Of a stretch of DNA of 12,643 bases, positions 2,624 to 8,044 are shown in pieces. Position 1 is the first letter of the stretch. Each line of letters opens with the position of its first letter. Location: the IMG/VR virus record IMGVR_UViG_2778261064_000023. The stretch is one strand, 5' to 3'. This DNA is from a virus (taxonomy: Duplodnaviria; Heunggongvirae; Uroviricota; Caudoviricetes). The position numbers and the translations under genes were made by a program. The notes beneath the pieces were generated by a model. It was not told the DNA's origin. It ran no database searches and was given only the letters and a program-made list of their open reading frames with translations.

Positions 2624-3163
2624 ATGAGAAATCATACCACACACCCGCAAGGGCGGGACTCGCACAACCTGAATAAAGCGGGTATGAAAAACCTGTTGAT
2701 CGCCACTGCCAGCCAGGGCTATGATTTACCCGCACCAGCAAAATCTGGTGCCGGGATTGGCGTCCTGGTATTTAACGAAGCGCACAACACGCGCCCTGCG
2801 TGTTTTTTTGTGCCGGATAGTCACACCTTATCAATGGTGGGCTGTATGGGGGCGGAGCAATCCGCGCCGGGTTCTTCGTTAACCGGTTACGCCAACCCTG
2901 TACAGTCCACCGCCAGCGAAATTGGCGTTTCCTGCGGTGGGTTTATTAAACCTAACGAAGAGGCTGCCAACATGGCTACTACCCCTACCCTTGTACATTC
3001 TCAAATTGCCTTTATCTGGCGCTTTATCATCTTTGGCGCGTCAGAGTCCCAAATCATCCACGTCACCGCCTGGACGGAACGCGAAGCGCGTAACCATTGC
3101 CCGTCAGGTTGTGTCGCTGTATTCGCCGCCCGTATTCGTCAGGGGGTACGCTATGTGCAATAA
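2624..3163 (+). CDS. Hypothetical protein (179 aa), first gene of a four-gene operon upstream of the primase
   Basis: ATG at 2624 preceded by GAGG at a 5-nt spacing; the ORF extends upstream to 2513 but that part overlaps the promoter/operators; stop overlaps the next start. Confidence 0.5.
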
Positions 3164-3608: not shown

Positions 3609-3923
3609 ATGAAACAGAAAAATTCTGGCTTTACTGCCAGCGGCCCCGCTCGGCCTGAAATCCGCCCAGGCGATATTTTCAAAGATAAATATGGTGGACG
3701 AATAACGATAAAAACCGTTGACGATTTTCGCGTGACTTATATCCGCGAAGGTTATGCGCATCCCTGCGTGTCGTCTCATATGCGTTTTGAGAGTGAGTTC
3801 ACCCTGGTAAGTAAAGCGCCACCAGCAGAATTAAGCGACATCGACAGAATCATGCGCGTTACAGGAATGGAACGCATTAAGGCAGTACGTGAAATTATTC
3901 GTGAACGGGGAAAGGCAAAATGA
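3609..3923 (+). CDS. Hypothetical protein (104 aa), stop overlaps the primase start (ATGA)
   Basis: ATG at 3609 preceded by GGAGA; stop 3921-3923 overlaps the ATG at 3920. Confidence 0.55.
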   Translation: MKQKNSGFTASGPARPEIRPGDIFKDKYGGRITIKTVDDFRVTYIREGYAHPCVSSHMRFESEFTLVSKAPPAELSDIDRIMRVTGMERIKAVREIIRERGKAK

Positions 3924-6064
3924 AACTGGCACCGAACGTAAAAAAACAGCCTCGCGGAATAAAAAACAAAGACACAGAGGTAATTATTTTCGCGGGTAGT
4001 GATGCCTGGTCGCATGCACAACAGTGGCAGGAGAAGGACGGTCCCGCATCCGGCGATAATGTGCCGCCTGTGTGGCTTGGGCCAAATCAGCTTGCCGAAC
4101 TTGATGCGCTGAAAATTGTTCCGGATGGAAAAAAACGCGTAAGGCTGTACCAGGCCGGAGAACTGGATTTAGTGGAGATCAAAAAGATTGGTCAGAAGCT
4201 GGCGGCGGCAGATATTCAGGATGCGAATTTTTACCCTGAAGGAATGCACGGCCAGAAGTGTGAAAACTGGCGGCGCTATCTGAACGTTGAGCGTCAGAAT
4301 CTTTCTGCAGATCTGGTAATTAAGCTTCCGGTAAAGAAAAAAGCCACTACAAGCCCGGGTGATGATGAATTAAAGCCCCGCGTTGAAAGTCGCGCCGATG
4401 GTGTTTTCTGGGTAACGCCCAAAGTGGATAAGCAGTCAGGAGAAATTATCCGGCCTGAGACGTGGTTATGTTCTCCGCTTGAACTACTGGGAACTGGCAC
4501 GATTGGTAAAGAGCATTACCGCGTGATGCGCTGGAAAAAGCCAGCAAATCATGAAGTCATCACAATGGCGATTCCGTGCGGTGGCATTGGCGACCGTGAC
4601 GGCTGGCGGCTACTGAAAGACCACGGACTGAACGTAACAACCAACGGCAAATACAGGGCTATCCTGGCTGACTGGATGCAGTTAAGCGGAAGCCATGAGG
4701 AATGGCAGTTAAGCACAACAACGGGCTGGCATTTTGGCGCGTACATCATGCCGGACGGTTCGGTCATTGGTGAGTCTGAAAAACCGATTCTGTTTACCGG
4801 AAAAAGTGCCGCTGTTAATGGCTATTCGGTTGCGGGTACGGCGGAGGGCTGGCGCGACTGCGTGGCGCGGCTGGCTGGTGGCAATCCGTCCATGATGCTG
4901 GGTGTTGCCACGTCACTGGCAGCACCTTTGATTGGCCTTGTTGGTGCGGACGGCTTCGGGGTACATCTTTTCGAACAGTCATCGGCAGGGAAAACCACCA
5001 CGCAGAACATCGCATCAAGTTTATGGGGAGAGCCGGACGCACAACGGCTGACCTGGTACGGCACGGCGTTAGGCATCGCCAACGAGGCAGAGGCACACAA
5101 TGACGGGCTTTTACCCCTGGATGAAATAGGCCAGGCCGGAAACGCGCGGGAGGTGTCCACATCGGCTTATACGCTGTTTAACGGTTCCGGGAAATTACAG
5201 GGAGCGAAGGACGGCGGCAACCGGGAGATCAAACACTGGCGAACTGTGGCAATCAGTACCGGAGAAATGGACGTTGAAACATTCCTCAAAACGGAGGGGA
5301 TAAAAGTCAAGGCGGGGCAGCTTGTCCGTCTGCTTAACGTGCCGATGGAAAAAGCCACGCAGTTTCACGAATACAGCACCGGAAAGGCACACGCAGACGC
5401 GTTAAAGGATGCCTGGACAGCAAATCACGGGGCGGCGGGTCGTGAATGGGTTAAATGGCTGGCAGACCACCAGCAGGAGGCAAAGGACACGGTAAGGGCA
5501 TGCCGTGAACGGTGGCGCAACCTGATACCGGAGAGCTACGGCGAGCAGGTACACCGCGTGGGTGAGCGTTTCGCCATACTGGAGGCCGCGCTTGTGCTTT
5601 CCGGTCATGTTACTGGCTGGGATGAGCAGGAATGCCGCGATGCCATTCAGCATAATTTTTATGCCTGGGTGAAGGAATTCGGTACGGGCAACAGGGAACA
5701 CAGGCAGATTATTGAACAGGCTGAGGCGTTTCTTGCGGCCTATGGCCTGAGCAGGTTCGCCCCTGTCAATTATGACCCTGCCAGCCTGCCGATTTCAGAA
5801 CTGTACGGCTACAGGGAAAGCGACGGACGTTATGACGAGCCTGTTTTGTTTTACGTGCTGCCGGAGCCGTTTAGCTCACATGTGGCGAAGGGATTTAACA
5901 AGGATGCCGTAGCAAAGACCCTTCATGAAGCCGGAATGCTGAGAAAACCAGCCTGCGGGCGGGGATGGCAAATCAGGACACCACGACTAAAACACCTGAA
6001 AGGGGCGCGGCTAAGAGTGTATGGCCTTTTGCTGACACAGGACCACGATGCTGAAAATGATTAA
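3920..6064 (+). CDS. Satellite replication protein: primase/helicase (P4 alpha-like / D5-type NTPase) with Walker A motif
   Basis: 714-aa ORF; P-loop GVHLFEQSSAGKTTTQ; size and position (after alpA, before iterons) match PICI pri-rep / P4 alpha; iterons immediately downstream. Confidence 0.8.
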   Translation: MKLAPNVKKQPRGIKNKDTEVIIFAGSDAWSHAQQWQEKDGPASGDNVPPVWLGPNQLAELDALKIVPDGKKRVRLYQAGELDLVEIKKIGQKLAAADIQDANFYPEGMHGQKCENWRRYLNVERQNLSADLVIKLPVKKKATTSPGDDELKPRVESRADGVFWVTPKVDKQSGEIIRPETWLCSPLELLGTGTIGKEHYRVMRWKKPANHEVITMAIPCGGIGDRDGWRLLKDHGLNVTTNGKYRAILADWMQLSGSHEEWQLSTTTGWHFGAYIMPDGSVIGESEKPILFTGKSAAVNGYSVAGTAEGWRDCVARLAGGNPSMMLGVATSLAAPLIGLVGADGFGVHLFEQSSAGKTTTQNIASSLWGEPDAQRLTWYGTALGIANEAEAHNDGLLPLDEIGQAGNAREVSTSAYTLFNGSGKLQGAKDGGNREIKHWRTVAISTGEMDVETFLKTEGIKVKAGQLVRLLNVPMEKATQFHEYSTGKAHADALKDAWTANHGAAGREWVKWLADHQQEAKDTVRACRERWRNLIPESYGEQVHRVGERFAILEAALVLSGHVTGWDEQECRDAIQHNFYAWVKEFGTGNREHRQIIEQAEAFLAAYGLSRFAPVNYDPASLPISELYGYRESDGRYDEPVLFYVLPEPFSSHVAKGFNKDAVAKTLHEAGMLRKPACGRGWQIRTPRLKHLKGARLRVYGLLLTQDHDAEND

Positions 6065-6089
6065 TCTCGCGTGTAGGAGGTAAAAATAT

Positions 6090-6379
6090 GTTGTCCCAGT
6101 CGTCCCAGTAAGCAACAAGCAATCGTAACACATTGAATTACATATATTTCACTTACAAAAAGTGGGACAACAGCGGGACAATATTCAGGCATTTTGGGAC
6201 AACATAGCGGCATTTTGGGACGACACGACATGTATTTTTTACCGTGCTGGAGGGTGGGACAACACAAAAAACCTCATGTCGTCCCAAAATCGCCTTATGT
6301 CGTCCCACTTTGTGGAGTGTGTTTTTAATAAAATCAACAGGTTAACATTAAGTGGGACAACCGGGACAACTGGGACGAC
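6090..6379. repeat. Iteron-type replication origin: at least 11 copies of (T/C)GGGAC(A/G)AC in both orientations, flanked by AT-rich stretches
   Basis: Copies at 6090-6098(-), 6099-6107(-), 6163-6171, 6174-6181, 6195-6203, 6216-6224, 6255-6263, 6278-6286(-), 6299-6307(-), 6353-6361, 6362-6370, 6371-6379; TATATATATA at 6386-6397. Confidence 0.7.
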
Positions 6380-6418
6380 GTGTTTTGTATATATATACGA
6401 AAAATCGAGATCTGAACT

Positions 6419-6661
6419 ATGAAGTTAAACCGCAAACAACCACACTACCGCGCCATTGACCTTACAGAGCACTGGCTGAGGGTGGCGATAAAAATCATCG
6501 ACCGCAACGCGGGAGAAGGATACGCGAAAGCACATCCCGAACTGATAAGCGCATTCATGGCCACGGCGGCGGCAAATTTTGCCACGCTGACAGAGCGGGA
6601 GATTGCCGAAGCGGAACAGGTGACAACCATCAACGTTAAAACCGGAGAGCAGACAGCATGA
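6419..6661 (+). CDS. Hypothetical protein (80 aa) between origin and ssb; stop overlaps ssb start
   Basis: ORF with ATGA overlap to the downstream gene at 6658; no recognisable family. Confidence 0.5.
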   Translation: MKLNRKQPHYRAIDLTEHWLRVAIKIIDRNAGEGYAKAHPELISAFMATAAANFATLTEREIAEAEQVTTINVKTGEQTA

Positions 6662-7080
6662 CAGCACAGATAGCGGCTTACGGGCGGCTGGTGGCTGACC
6701 CGCAGTTAAAGACCACCAGCAAGGGGACACAAATGGCGATGGCGAGTATGGCGGTTCCCCTGCCGTGCAGCCAGGCAGATGACGGAACGGCGACGATGTG
6801 GCTATCCGTCCTGGCGTTTGGCAGACAGGCCGACGCACTGGCAAAACACCGCAAAGGCGAACTCGTGAGCGTGGCGGGTAACATGCAGGTAAGCCAGTGG
6901 ACAGGCCAGAACGGCGAAACGCGGCAGGGCTGGCAGGTCATCGCAGACAGCGTAATCAGTGCGCGAACGGCGCGACCGGGCGGCAAAAAAGGTCAACAGG
7001 GCCAGGCTACTGACGCACTGAACAGGGCAAAACAACAGGCGGGAAATGATGACCCGTACGGGGATAACATCCCGTTTTAA
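6658..7080 (+). CDS. ssb: Single-stranded DNA-binding protein (SSB-like)
   Basis: 140-aa product with Gly/Gln-rich linker and acidic C-terminal tail DDPYGDNIPF resembling the SSB C-terminal DDDIPF motif; OB-fold-like N-terminus. Confidence 0.75.
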   Translation: MTAQIAAYGRLVADPQLKTTSKGTQMAMASMAVPLPCSQADDGTATMWLSVLAFGRQADALAKHRKGELVSVAGNMQVSQWTGQNGETRQGWQVIADSVISARTARPGGKKGQQGQATDALNRAKQQAGNDDPYGDNIPF

Positions 7081-7116
7081 TTCACAACAGCGAACAGAGT
7101 AATTACAGGGGAAGGC

Positions 7117-7653
7117 ATGACAACGCTGACCATTAACCGAAAACCGAAAGGCATTTACGGCACGCAGTCAGAAACGACGCAGGCGGCACAGCAGCAGGAT
7201 AAAACCACATCGGCGCATAAAGTGATACCCGGCAATCAGAACGCACAGCAGAGCCGCAAAGGGCAGCCCACAGGGGTGACACCGTGGCGGCATATGACCA
7301 AACGCCAGCGCAAAAACCGCAGACGCGTTAACCGCCTTATTGAGCTGTGGCCTGATTTATTCAGCCGGGAAACACCGAAGCCGCTTAAGGTGGGGATATT
7401 CGACGACCTGATGCAGGATCTCGCCGTCAGGGGGCTGGCATTCGGGCCAGGGGCATTACGTGCGACGCTGGCATCTTATGCGCAGTCTCCGCGCTATTAC
7501 CGCGCCTTAATGGCTGGTGGTGCACGTTACGACCTGAAAGGCCAGCCATGTGGGGAAGTGACACCACAGGAACAGCAGGAGGCAGAAACGCGGCTGGCAG
7601 CACTGAATGAAAAGCGCAAACGTCAGGCGACAAAGGAGAGGACAGGCGCATGA
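7117..7653 (+). CDS. FinO/ProQ-domain RNA chaperone-like protein with Gln-rich N-terminal extension
   Basis: Residues about 60-178 align with the E. coli ProQ N-terminal domain as recalled (PLKVGIFDDL vs PLKIGIFQDL; RYDLKGQPCGEV vs RVDLDGNPCGEL); RBS GGGGAAGG upstream. Confidence 0.7.
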   Translation: MTTLTINRKPKGIYGTQSETTQAAQQQDKTTSAHKVIPGNQNAQQSRKGQPTGVTPWRHMTKRQRKNRRRVNRLIELWPDLFSRETPKPLKVGIFDDLMQDLAVRGLAFGPGALRATLASYAQSPRYYRALMAGGARYDLKGQPCGEVTPQEQQEAETRLAALNEKRKRQATKERTGA

Positions 7654-7937
7654 TTCGTGACAGCAAAGCGGAAGAACTGGAGACTAAAGGCCTGTACCGG
7701 AGAGCGGCGGCGCGGTGGGCTGAGGTCATGCAGCTGGTGAACACCGATAAGGAGCGCGAACAGGTGGCAAAGCGTCGCGCGGAATGCATCCGCAAGGCAG
7801 CACGCCCACCCGTTATGGCGGATAACTTCGGGGCGCTGAAAGAGGCTGTAAACCGCACTCATGCGGTGATGGGGATGGAAGACGCGGGTAAATCCGTCTG
7901 GCGGAACTACCCGAAGCAGCCTGGCAGCAACCAGTGA
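7650..7937 (+). CDS. PerC-family transcriptional regulator
   Basis: 95-aa product starting MIRDSKAEELETKGLYRRAAARWAEV, matching the PerC/Pch N-terminal signature KAEELE.KG.WRRAA.RW; start overlaps the upstream stop (ATGA). Confidence 0.75.
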   Translation: MIRDSKAEELETKGLYRRAAARWAEVMQLVNTDKEREQVAKRRAECIRKAARPPVMADNFGALKEAVNRTHAVMGMEDAGKSVWRNYPKQPGSNQ

Positions 7938-8019
7938 TGCCGGATATTATCCTGAAAAATGACCATCACTCCCGTGGGCGGATAACATAAAATTCTGCAT
8001 ATGTGCACACACACAGACG

Positions 8020-8044
8020 AAGCCGGAACACTCCGGCTTTTTTT
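8020..8044 (+). terminator. Rho-independent terminator (7-bp stem AGCCGGA/TCCGGCT, 4-nt loop, T7 run)
   Basis: Hairpin plus T-run read from sequence directly after the perC-like gene; the T-run abuts cos-like site 1. Confidence 0.6.

Follow-up and report, generated by a model that had tools for sequence, protein, structure and literature searches.

A FinO-domain protein gene and a PerC-family gene closing the replication operon in an Escherichia phage satellite

What might an RNA chaperone of the FinO/ProQ family and a PerC-family regulator, encoded side by side, do for a phage satellite? The question is raised by the virus record IMGVR_UViG_2778261064_000023 (Caudoviricetes), a stretch of 12,643 nucleotides that was analysed as a whole and is called the window here. 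FinO-domain proteins are one of three major bacterial RNA chaperone classes. The two open reading frames (ORFs) in question, the FinO-like gene and the PerC gene, had been proposed in an initial annotation to be co-expressed and to let their island reprogram virulence and small RNA (sRNA) networks of the host. We find that the pair probably sits at the promoter-distal end of the early, or replication, operon in a phage-inducible chromosomal island (PICI), with the FinO-like protein serving the life cycle of the element itself and PerC occupying a slot in the operon. The features of the pair are:

7117..7653, plus strand: FinO-domain protein of 178 amino acids, pI 10.6 (Pfam ProQ, 86.9 bits)
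7633..7653, plus strand: candidate coupling junction made of a Shine-Dalgarno sequence and ATGA, read from the sequence
7650..7937, plus strand: PerC-family small regulator of 95 amino acids, pI 9.8 (Pfam PerC, 123.5 bits; phrog_994, 140 bits)

The FinO-like ORF starts with an ATG and is preceded by the Shine-Dalgarno sequence GGGGAAGG. A profile search confirmed the assignment of its product to the ProQ/FinO family, with Pfam PF04352 matching residues 68-171 (E=1.2e-24) far above the cut-off of 27 bits. Searches of PDB sequences with phmmer revealed matches to the N-terminal domain of ProQ (4e-12), to FinO (8e-12), and to NMB1681 and RocC. An AlphaFold2 model agreed with this assignment. Confidence in the model (pLDDT) was 85-96 across residues 56-178, and its helices (62-77, 94-105, 111-122, 125-133 and 150-176) and strands (136-138 and 144-147) make up the helical bowl and two-stranded beta-hairpin of the FinO fold. 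A comparison of the model with the PDB by Foldseek gave 26 significant matches, all of them to FinO, NMB1681, RocC or Lpp1663, the best being FinO (1DVO) with a root-mean-square deviation of 2.1 A over 106 columns. Alignment of a 19-member family with ProQ showed that lysine (K) 91, tyrosine (Y) 127, arginine (R) 137 and aspartate (D) 139, which correspond to ProQ K35, Y70, R80 and D82, are invariant; R115 (ProQ R58) is replaced by cysteine in three of the 19 members. As modelled, the protein is a bona fide FinO fold with its RNA-contact residues intact.

The domain architecture consists of an N-terminal arm (residues 1-55), a basic stretch (62-70) and the FinO domain (~62-176); a ProQ-type C-terminal domain is absent, the last residue (178) coming straight after the FinO domain. 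The protein scored below the cut-offs of both the ProQ equivalog model NF003434 (58.3 bits; cut-off 127) and the NCBIfam FinO model NF010317 (65.6 bits; cut-off 136). The N-terminal extension had been described as glutamine-rich. An extension of ~60 residues is indeed present, predicted to be disordered over residues 1-55, but its composition is rich in both glutamine (15%) and threonine (17%), and it ends in the basic stretch KRQRKNRRR. The arm is restricted to this clade, with nine matches among 1.84 billion representative proteins, and its ratio of nonsynonymous to synonymous substitution rates (dN/dS, 0.25) is similar to that of the domain (0.23), indicating similar constraint. Across 24 lineages the median dN/dS was 0.24 for the FinO-like gene and 0.29 for PerC; both are under purifying selection and are therefore not chance ORFs. 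In sequenced phages, blastn detected no nucleotide homologue, and the protein matches were distant only (31-40% identity). A search with PADLOC gave no match for either protein, and a role in a defence system was dropped.

The PerC assignment was likewise borne out, by a match of Pfam PF06069 to residues 1-89 of 95 (E=4.4e-36; cut-off 22.6 bits). The score against the ANR family NF033650 (17.7 bits) was below its cut-off of 32, and no solved homologue was found among PDB structures. PerC variants are a recognised and common gene of Gram-negative PICIs (PMC6092414, PMC11773190), and an ANR-like mode of action has been proposed for PerC-like proteins of PICIs (PMC11773190). The window carries a second PerC-family gene (12272-12643, plus strand; 81.1 bits) with 39% identity to the first, located at the island's right end and stopping exactly at the window edge.

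As first described, the stop codon of the FinO-like ORF and the start codon of PerC overlap in an ATGA (7650-7653). A Shine-Dalgarno sequence, AAGGAG/GAGG, lies at 7633-7641, within the FinO-like ORF. The junction AAGGAG-N11-GCGCATGATTC is kept in 24 of 34 lineages, including those in which PerC is only 58-61% identical. The overlap, the internal Shine-Dalgarno sequence and their retention in relatives make up the sequence signature of translational coupling. Co-expression, as the initial annotation had it, is plausible on sequence grounds, given the conserved junction, the shared end of the operon and the terminator that follows. The same ATGA overlap joins DUF4222 to DUF927 (3920-3923) and the gene of an 80-amino-acid hypothetical protein to that of the single-stranded DNA-binding protein (SSB; 6658-6661), giving three in the operon; the overlap between FinO-like and PerC thus reflects a general style of this operon. 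Synonymous divergence (dS) is 0.84 for PerC versus 0.24 for the FinO-like gene. PerC is therefore far more diverged, a gap that implies recombination near the junction.

The pair closes an operon with the following further parts, in which the FinO-like gene and PerC stand between SSB and terminator:

3609..3923, plus strand: DUF4222 gene (Pfam PF13973, 66.3 bits), opening the conserved replication block
3920..6064, plus strand: DUF927 primase/helicase, a Pri-Rep-type replication initiator (Pfam PF06048, 161.4 bits)
6083..6404: putative replication origin with at least 13 TGGGAC(A/G)AC iterons in both orientations and an AT-rich stretch
6419..6661, plus strand: hypothetical protein of 80 amino acids (phrog_1231; PHROGs 162.5 bits)
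6658..7080, plus strand: SSB (Pfam SSB 59.6 bits, TIGR00621 61.7 bits)
8019..8045, plus strand: intrinsic terminator closing the operon, GAAGCCGGA-ACAC-UCCGGCUUU and then a U-run (z = -3.4 for the RNA fold of 7930-8060)

The putative origin, of a type usual for PICIs, fills the gap from the primase gene to the next ORF, and its AT-rich part is palindromic (6383-6404). PICI origins sit downstream of the pri-rep gene (PMC6092414), and the position of the origin in the window agrees with this. The 80-amino-acid protein had no Pfam match. A terminator is found downstream of the unit in nearly every lineage, with varying hairpin sequences. The block from the 80-amino-acid protein to PerC (6400-7900) has a GC content of 57-59% and an A-over-T skew of +0.3 to +0.4, and the whole window has a GC content of 49.7%; this composition suggests that the block differs in origin from the remaining island.

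Gene content and insertion site identify the element as a phage satellite, a cos-type PICI of Escherichia, in line with its original description as satellite-encoded. PICIs were recognised by a size of ~10-15 kb, an integrase, an AlpA regulator, a pri-rep gene with an iteron origin, site-specific insertion and the absence of capsid, tail and lysis genes. The window element shows the integrase, AlpA, a pri-rep gene followed by the iteron origin, the size and the site-specific insertion, besides DUF4222 and SSB. Pfam and PHROGs searches detected no capsid or lysis genes among the window genes, tail genes are likewise absent, and TerS-like genes were the only packaging-related ones (PHROGs). A matching island of ~14 kb lies between tRNA-Pro/yejM and yejO in E. 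coli STEC316, where the locus is 99.5% identical to window positions 6400-8800. The genes upstream of the replication block include:

1-1239: integrase
1661-1867: AlpA-family regulator (Pfam 60.3 bits)
minus strand: YlcI/YnfO-like gene

Of 5,426 complete E. coli genomes, about 347-412 (about 6-7%) carry the FinO-like gene, and there it is always chromosomal; the region of the pair matched 347 of these genomes, with a coverage of 80% or more in 227 matches. Relatives are known from E. ruysiae, from E. albertii and, at a greater distance, from Serratia. One plasmid, NZ_OP290546.1 (IncI-gamma/K1, NDM-5; locus L005), carries an unannotated and apparently split FinO-like fragment (8998-9509, 47-68% identical) that adjoins AlpA, YfjI and inovirus-Gp2-type genes; it is the only plasmid site resembling the satellite clade among 404 E. 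coli and more than 5,000 plasmid matches.

Gene linkage was analysed with custom ORF and BLAST scripts in 80 IMG/VR loci together with annotated genomes, de-duplicated to 34 lineages. The overlapping order FinO-PerC was found in 24 lineages, an inverted order in two, an intervening ORF in one, an 82-amino-acid ORF in five and other arrangements in two (the plasmid pseudogene fragment and a Serratia locus). In every locus with enough sequence, the FinO-like gene lies downstream of DUF4222-DUF927, and SSB is present only in a subset of the islands that carry it. Between islands, identity is 83-92% for the FinO-like protein and 43-100% for the primase. The two inverted lineages have the order SSB, PerC, an 80-nucleotide spacer and a FinO-like gene with its own Shine-Dalgarno sequence. 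This order was seen in loci L085-L088 (for example L085, 7078-8062) of a divergent lineage, where the FinO-like protein is 57% identical and the two genes are still adjacent despite the rearrangement. A 138-amino-acid Ant-like ORF intervenes between the two genes in a single lineage. Five lineages of capsid-forming PICIs combine the FinO-like gene with an unrelated 82-amino-acid ORF and lack PerC; this ORF was also seen without a FinO-like gene. Neither ORF is a cryptic PerC relative: the 82-amino-acid product had no Pfam match and an hhalign probability of 0.15%, and the 138-amino-acid product had no Pfam match and matches the anti-repressor Ant of PHROGs. In the island EcCICFT073 the equivalent operon reads SSB-PerC and has no FinO-like gene, and the second PerC of the window is solitary, with no FinO-like neighbour. 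The two genes are thus separable, since each occurs without the other. They are frequent, tightly packed neighbours, and neither needs the other.

The pair is real and widespread, yet already annotated. RefSeq labels its products 'ProQ/FINO family protein' and 'PerC family transcriptional regulator', and both genes were listed in a 2010 paper on enteroaggregative E. coli (EAEC) 042. A ProQ/FinO gene of PICIs appears, as an annotation only, in a 2026 survey of Enterobacter (PMC13612085), and a review makes no more than general mention of phage- and chromosome-borne FinO/ProQ copies (PMC9977716). In the literature we found no published analysis of the pairing.

Under the reading that we consider probable, the operon would be transcribed as a unit after induction by a helper phage, and translation of PerC would be at least partly coupled to that of the FinO-like gene. 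The FinO-like protein would bind RNAs with a hairpin and a 3' tail, of the terminator type, from the island or from the helper phage. It would stabilise or anneal them, as FinO and FopA do, and so tune the satellite life cycle, not a host virulence regulon. PerC would be the general occupant of the operon slot in PICIs and the FinO-like gene an optional, separable accessory inserted alongside. Published work on the family is consistent with such a role: FinO, FopA and PcnR of mobile elements act on RNAs of their own element via terminator hairpins, FopA and PcnR control plasmid replication, and ligands of the family are recognised by structure (hairpin and 3' tail) and not by sequence (PMC9977716). 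By analogy, the FinO-like protein is most likely a binder of RNA hairpins and 3' tails that serves the life cycle of its element.

Several points weigh against this reading. Three of its steps are ones that we infer: that the operon is transcribed as one unit, that translation of the pair is coupled and that the protein binds RNA. The FinO-like protein is 83-92% conserved where the primases are only 43-52% identical, with or without SSB; it therefore does not co-evolve with replication specificity, and its link to replication is positional only. Furthermore, no RNA ligand was found by the co-occurrence of C4 and isrK-like RNAs, by dS or by scans for antisense units. dS is not depressed in the FinO-like gene or in PerC, so that no overlapping antisense RNA gene is indicated, and no convincing pair of antisense promoter and terminator was detected opposite the replication genes. 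The C4 and isrK-like RNAs, which might have been a universal ligand, were rejected as such because most FinO-carrying islands lack them.

The window does encode these RNAs. They form a P1-type immunity RNA module (2719-2917, plus strand), carried by a minority of related islands, just upstream of the Icd-like ORF:

2719-2771, plus strand: c4-a1b1 target sites (44.5 bits, slightly under the gathering score)
2732-2808, plus strand: isrK-like RNA (Rfam 80 bits, above the gathering score)
2830-2917, plus strand: C4 antisense RNA (Rfam 75.3 bits, above the gathering score)
about 2972-3163: Icd-like ORF, downstream of the isrK-like and C4 RNAs

At Rfam gathering scores, C4/isrK were found in one of 19 representative FinO-carrying loci (L004 only), and by nhmmer in seven of 88 loci; at permissive thresholds, none was detected in three further FinO-positive loci.

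Other candidate partners were also set aside. A conserved cis-antisense RNA across the pair found no support, dS not being depressed and the terminator-like sites of the minus strand weak only. A search for an antisense RNA facing the leader of DUF4222 and the primase returned nothing convincing. The operon terminator was considered as a FinO-specific element and is not discriminating, given that its hairpins vary by lineage and that EcCICFT073, which has no FinO-like gene, has a terminator as well.

The claim that the pair reprograms host virulence and sRNA networks found no support. It would make the two genes an accessory virulence cassette, in which PerC activates or modulates promoters of the LEE/ler type (LEE, locus of enterocyte effacement), and the FinO-like protein rewires sRNA-mRNA networks of the host. 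The PerC family includes activators of LEE1, and some carriers of the pair are Shiga toxin-producing E. coli. The pair is nonetheless common in EAEC 042, 55989, O104:H4 and urinary isolates, pathotypes that are not known to carry LEE. The two genes lie within the replication operon, not in an accessory region, they are separable, and the PerC of the window shares no more than 65% identity with its homologues on plasmids. Among PICI proteins, EcCIMP1_025 strongly affects LEE1-lux in Citrobacter rodentium, whereas the PerC-like proteins of EcCICFT073 and EcCIEDL933 leave LEE1 unaffected and the EcCIMP1 homologue represses it (PMC11773190). The chromosomal ProQ of enterohaemorrhagic E. coli (EHEC) is reported to regulate virulence genes (PMC12426089). 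A virulence cassette is unlikely because LEE-negative carriers are common, the PerC proteins of PICIs act inconsistently on LEE and the genes are separable.

A bolder reading would add to ProQ, FinO and FopA/PcnR a fourth class of FinO-domain RNA chaperones in enterobacteria, specific to satellites and defined by the FinO-like protein. Its arm would capture a regulatory RNA of the helper phage or the island. The protein and the PerC translated with it would act as a switch with two layers, one transcriptional and one post-transcriptional, by which satellite development is timed or the lysis-lysogeny decision of the helper is biased. We regard this as a speculative and unlikely proposal. If true, it would amount to piracy at the RNA level by an E. 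coli phage satellite.

A direct part in replication, in which the FinO-like protein assists primase/helicase and SSB on primer RNA or on structured single strands at the origin, appears quite improbable. Position speaks in its favour, as DUF4222, DUF927 and the origin are in every case immediately upstream of the gene and SSB is often right before it, and the control of plasmid replication by FopA and PcnR offers a precedent (PMC9977716). Yet the protein keeps its high conservation next to strongly diverged primases and is also found in islands lacking SSB, scans for antisense units turned up none against the rep leader, and EcCICFT073, for which mobilisation has been reported (PMC6739421), replicates without a FinO-like gene.

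Action in trans is very doubtful. In this case the FinO-like protein would replace plasmid FinO, stabilising FinP and repressing F-like conjugation, or bind antisense RNAs of the helper and so bias lysis-lysogeny. Its fold is closest to FinO (1DVO), ligand recognition in the family is structural and RNA mimicry across elements has been documented (PMC9977716). Identity to FinO is, however, just 31-39% and confined to the domain, and nothing in the data ties carriage of the FinO-like gene to IncF plasmids or to one helper phage in particular. The N-terminal arm of FinO confers its duplexing activity, and the arm of the FinO-like protein is unrelated to it in sequence.

The slightest chance falls to a dedicated chaperone of the island's C4/isrK-like immunity RNAs that controls the switch between repression and induction: the window encodes both RNAs, and the isrK-like RNA, with a promoter-like site (2696-2725) and its own U-tailed terminator hairpin, is of the ligand type favoured by FinO domains, but the co-occurrence given above (1 of 19, 7 of 88 and none of three loci) fails.

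The preferred reading, an operon-end pair whose FinO-like member serves the life cycle of the element, concerns a clade found in ~1 in 15 complete E. coli genomes, with a fixed place in cos-type and capsid-forming PICIs and under purifying selection. Each FinO-domain copy so far characterised from a mobile element has brought to light an antisense-RNA circuit dedicated to it. The absence of a FinO-like gene from EcCICFT073, the standard model island, is probably why the clade was overlooked. Identification of the ligand could expose an RNA layer in the conflict between satellite and helper.

Further observations concern other parts of the island. A 53-nucleotide inverted repeat (8066-8118 and 11179-11231, 94% complementary; CCTTACCGCGGGGCGACGGACGCGCGG...) begins directly after the PerC terminator and brackets a 3.1-kb segment with both TerS-like genes; the two copies may be cos-like sites in opposite orientation. 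These genes are convergent and comprise:

8229-8777, plus strand: DUF1441 gene (phrog_141 TerS, 188 bits)
9483-10067, minus strand: Nu1-family gene (227.6 bits)

In relatives, the Nu1-like gene is flipped in orientation and DUF1441 is missing. DUF1441 could be an Rpp-type redirecting protein; as an Rpp homologue it had no sequence match to any PDB chain. A 29-nucleotide direct repeat (8745-8773 and 9121-9149, 97% identical) repeats the 3' end of the DUF1441 gene 376 nucleotides downstream and may be left over from an exchange of cassettes. Just downstream of alpA, the minus strand (1895-1973) has a promoter-like site (1973-1945) followed by a GC-rich hairpin with a T-run (1914-1895); the two could belong to an antisense transcript of very short length or to a terminator that works in both directions. 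The int-alpA RNA motif of Rfam (RF02996) was not detected in the window; it was found with 45-50 bits in the integrase-alpA interval of loci L003 (318-385), L006 (3442-3510), L035 (2870-2937), L069 (2869-2936) and L074 (2869-2936).

How does the pair compare with known systems? The FinO-like protein shares with FinO of F-like plasmids (1DVO) the fold, its location on a mobile element, a basic N-terminal extension and the lack of a C-terminal domain. The similarity in sequence is confined to the domain, and the N-termini are unrelated. FinO ends the tra operon, whereas the FinO-like gene ends a satellite replication operon, and no FinP-like cis-antisense RNA was found for it. FopA (YafB) of the IncI plasmid pCol1B9 has the same layout, in that its N-terminal region is disordered and contains two basic patches and its FinO domain is the last part of the chain, and it too is encoded on a mobile element beside replication functions. 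BLASTP aligned the two with 38% identity over 89 domain residues only and the N-termini do not align; as the alignment is confined to the FinO domain, orthology with FopA was rejected. The ligand of FopA is the antisense RNA Inc of repZ, a counterpart of which was not found for the FinO-like protein. ProQ of E. coli (5NB9) has a FinO domain with the equivalent residues K35, Y70, R80 and D82. The FinO-like protein differs from it in lacking the linker and the Tudor-like C-terminal domain and in being carried on an island and limited to about 7% of genomes.

PerC of the window resembles PerC of enteropathogenic E. coli (pEAF), Pch of EHEC prophages and the PerC-like proteins of PICIs over the full length of PF06069. 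The window allele differs from them, with at most 65% identity to plasmid copies and ~40% to phage copies (N-terminal half). As for whole islands, the model cos-type PICI EcCICFT073 shares the succession of Icd-like ORF, DUF4222, primase, hypothetical protein, SSB, PerC and terminator. It differs in having no FinO-like gene, with PerC directly after SSB, and in its integration site. A precedent for the pair itself is ROD34 of EAEC 042, located at tRNA-Pro, in which Ec042-2429 and Ec042-2430 were described as 'similar to proQ' and 'PerC-like' (PMC2808357). The 2010 paper listed the two genes as cargo, without analysis of their function, coupling or distribution.

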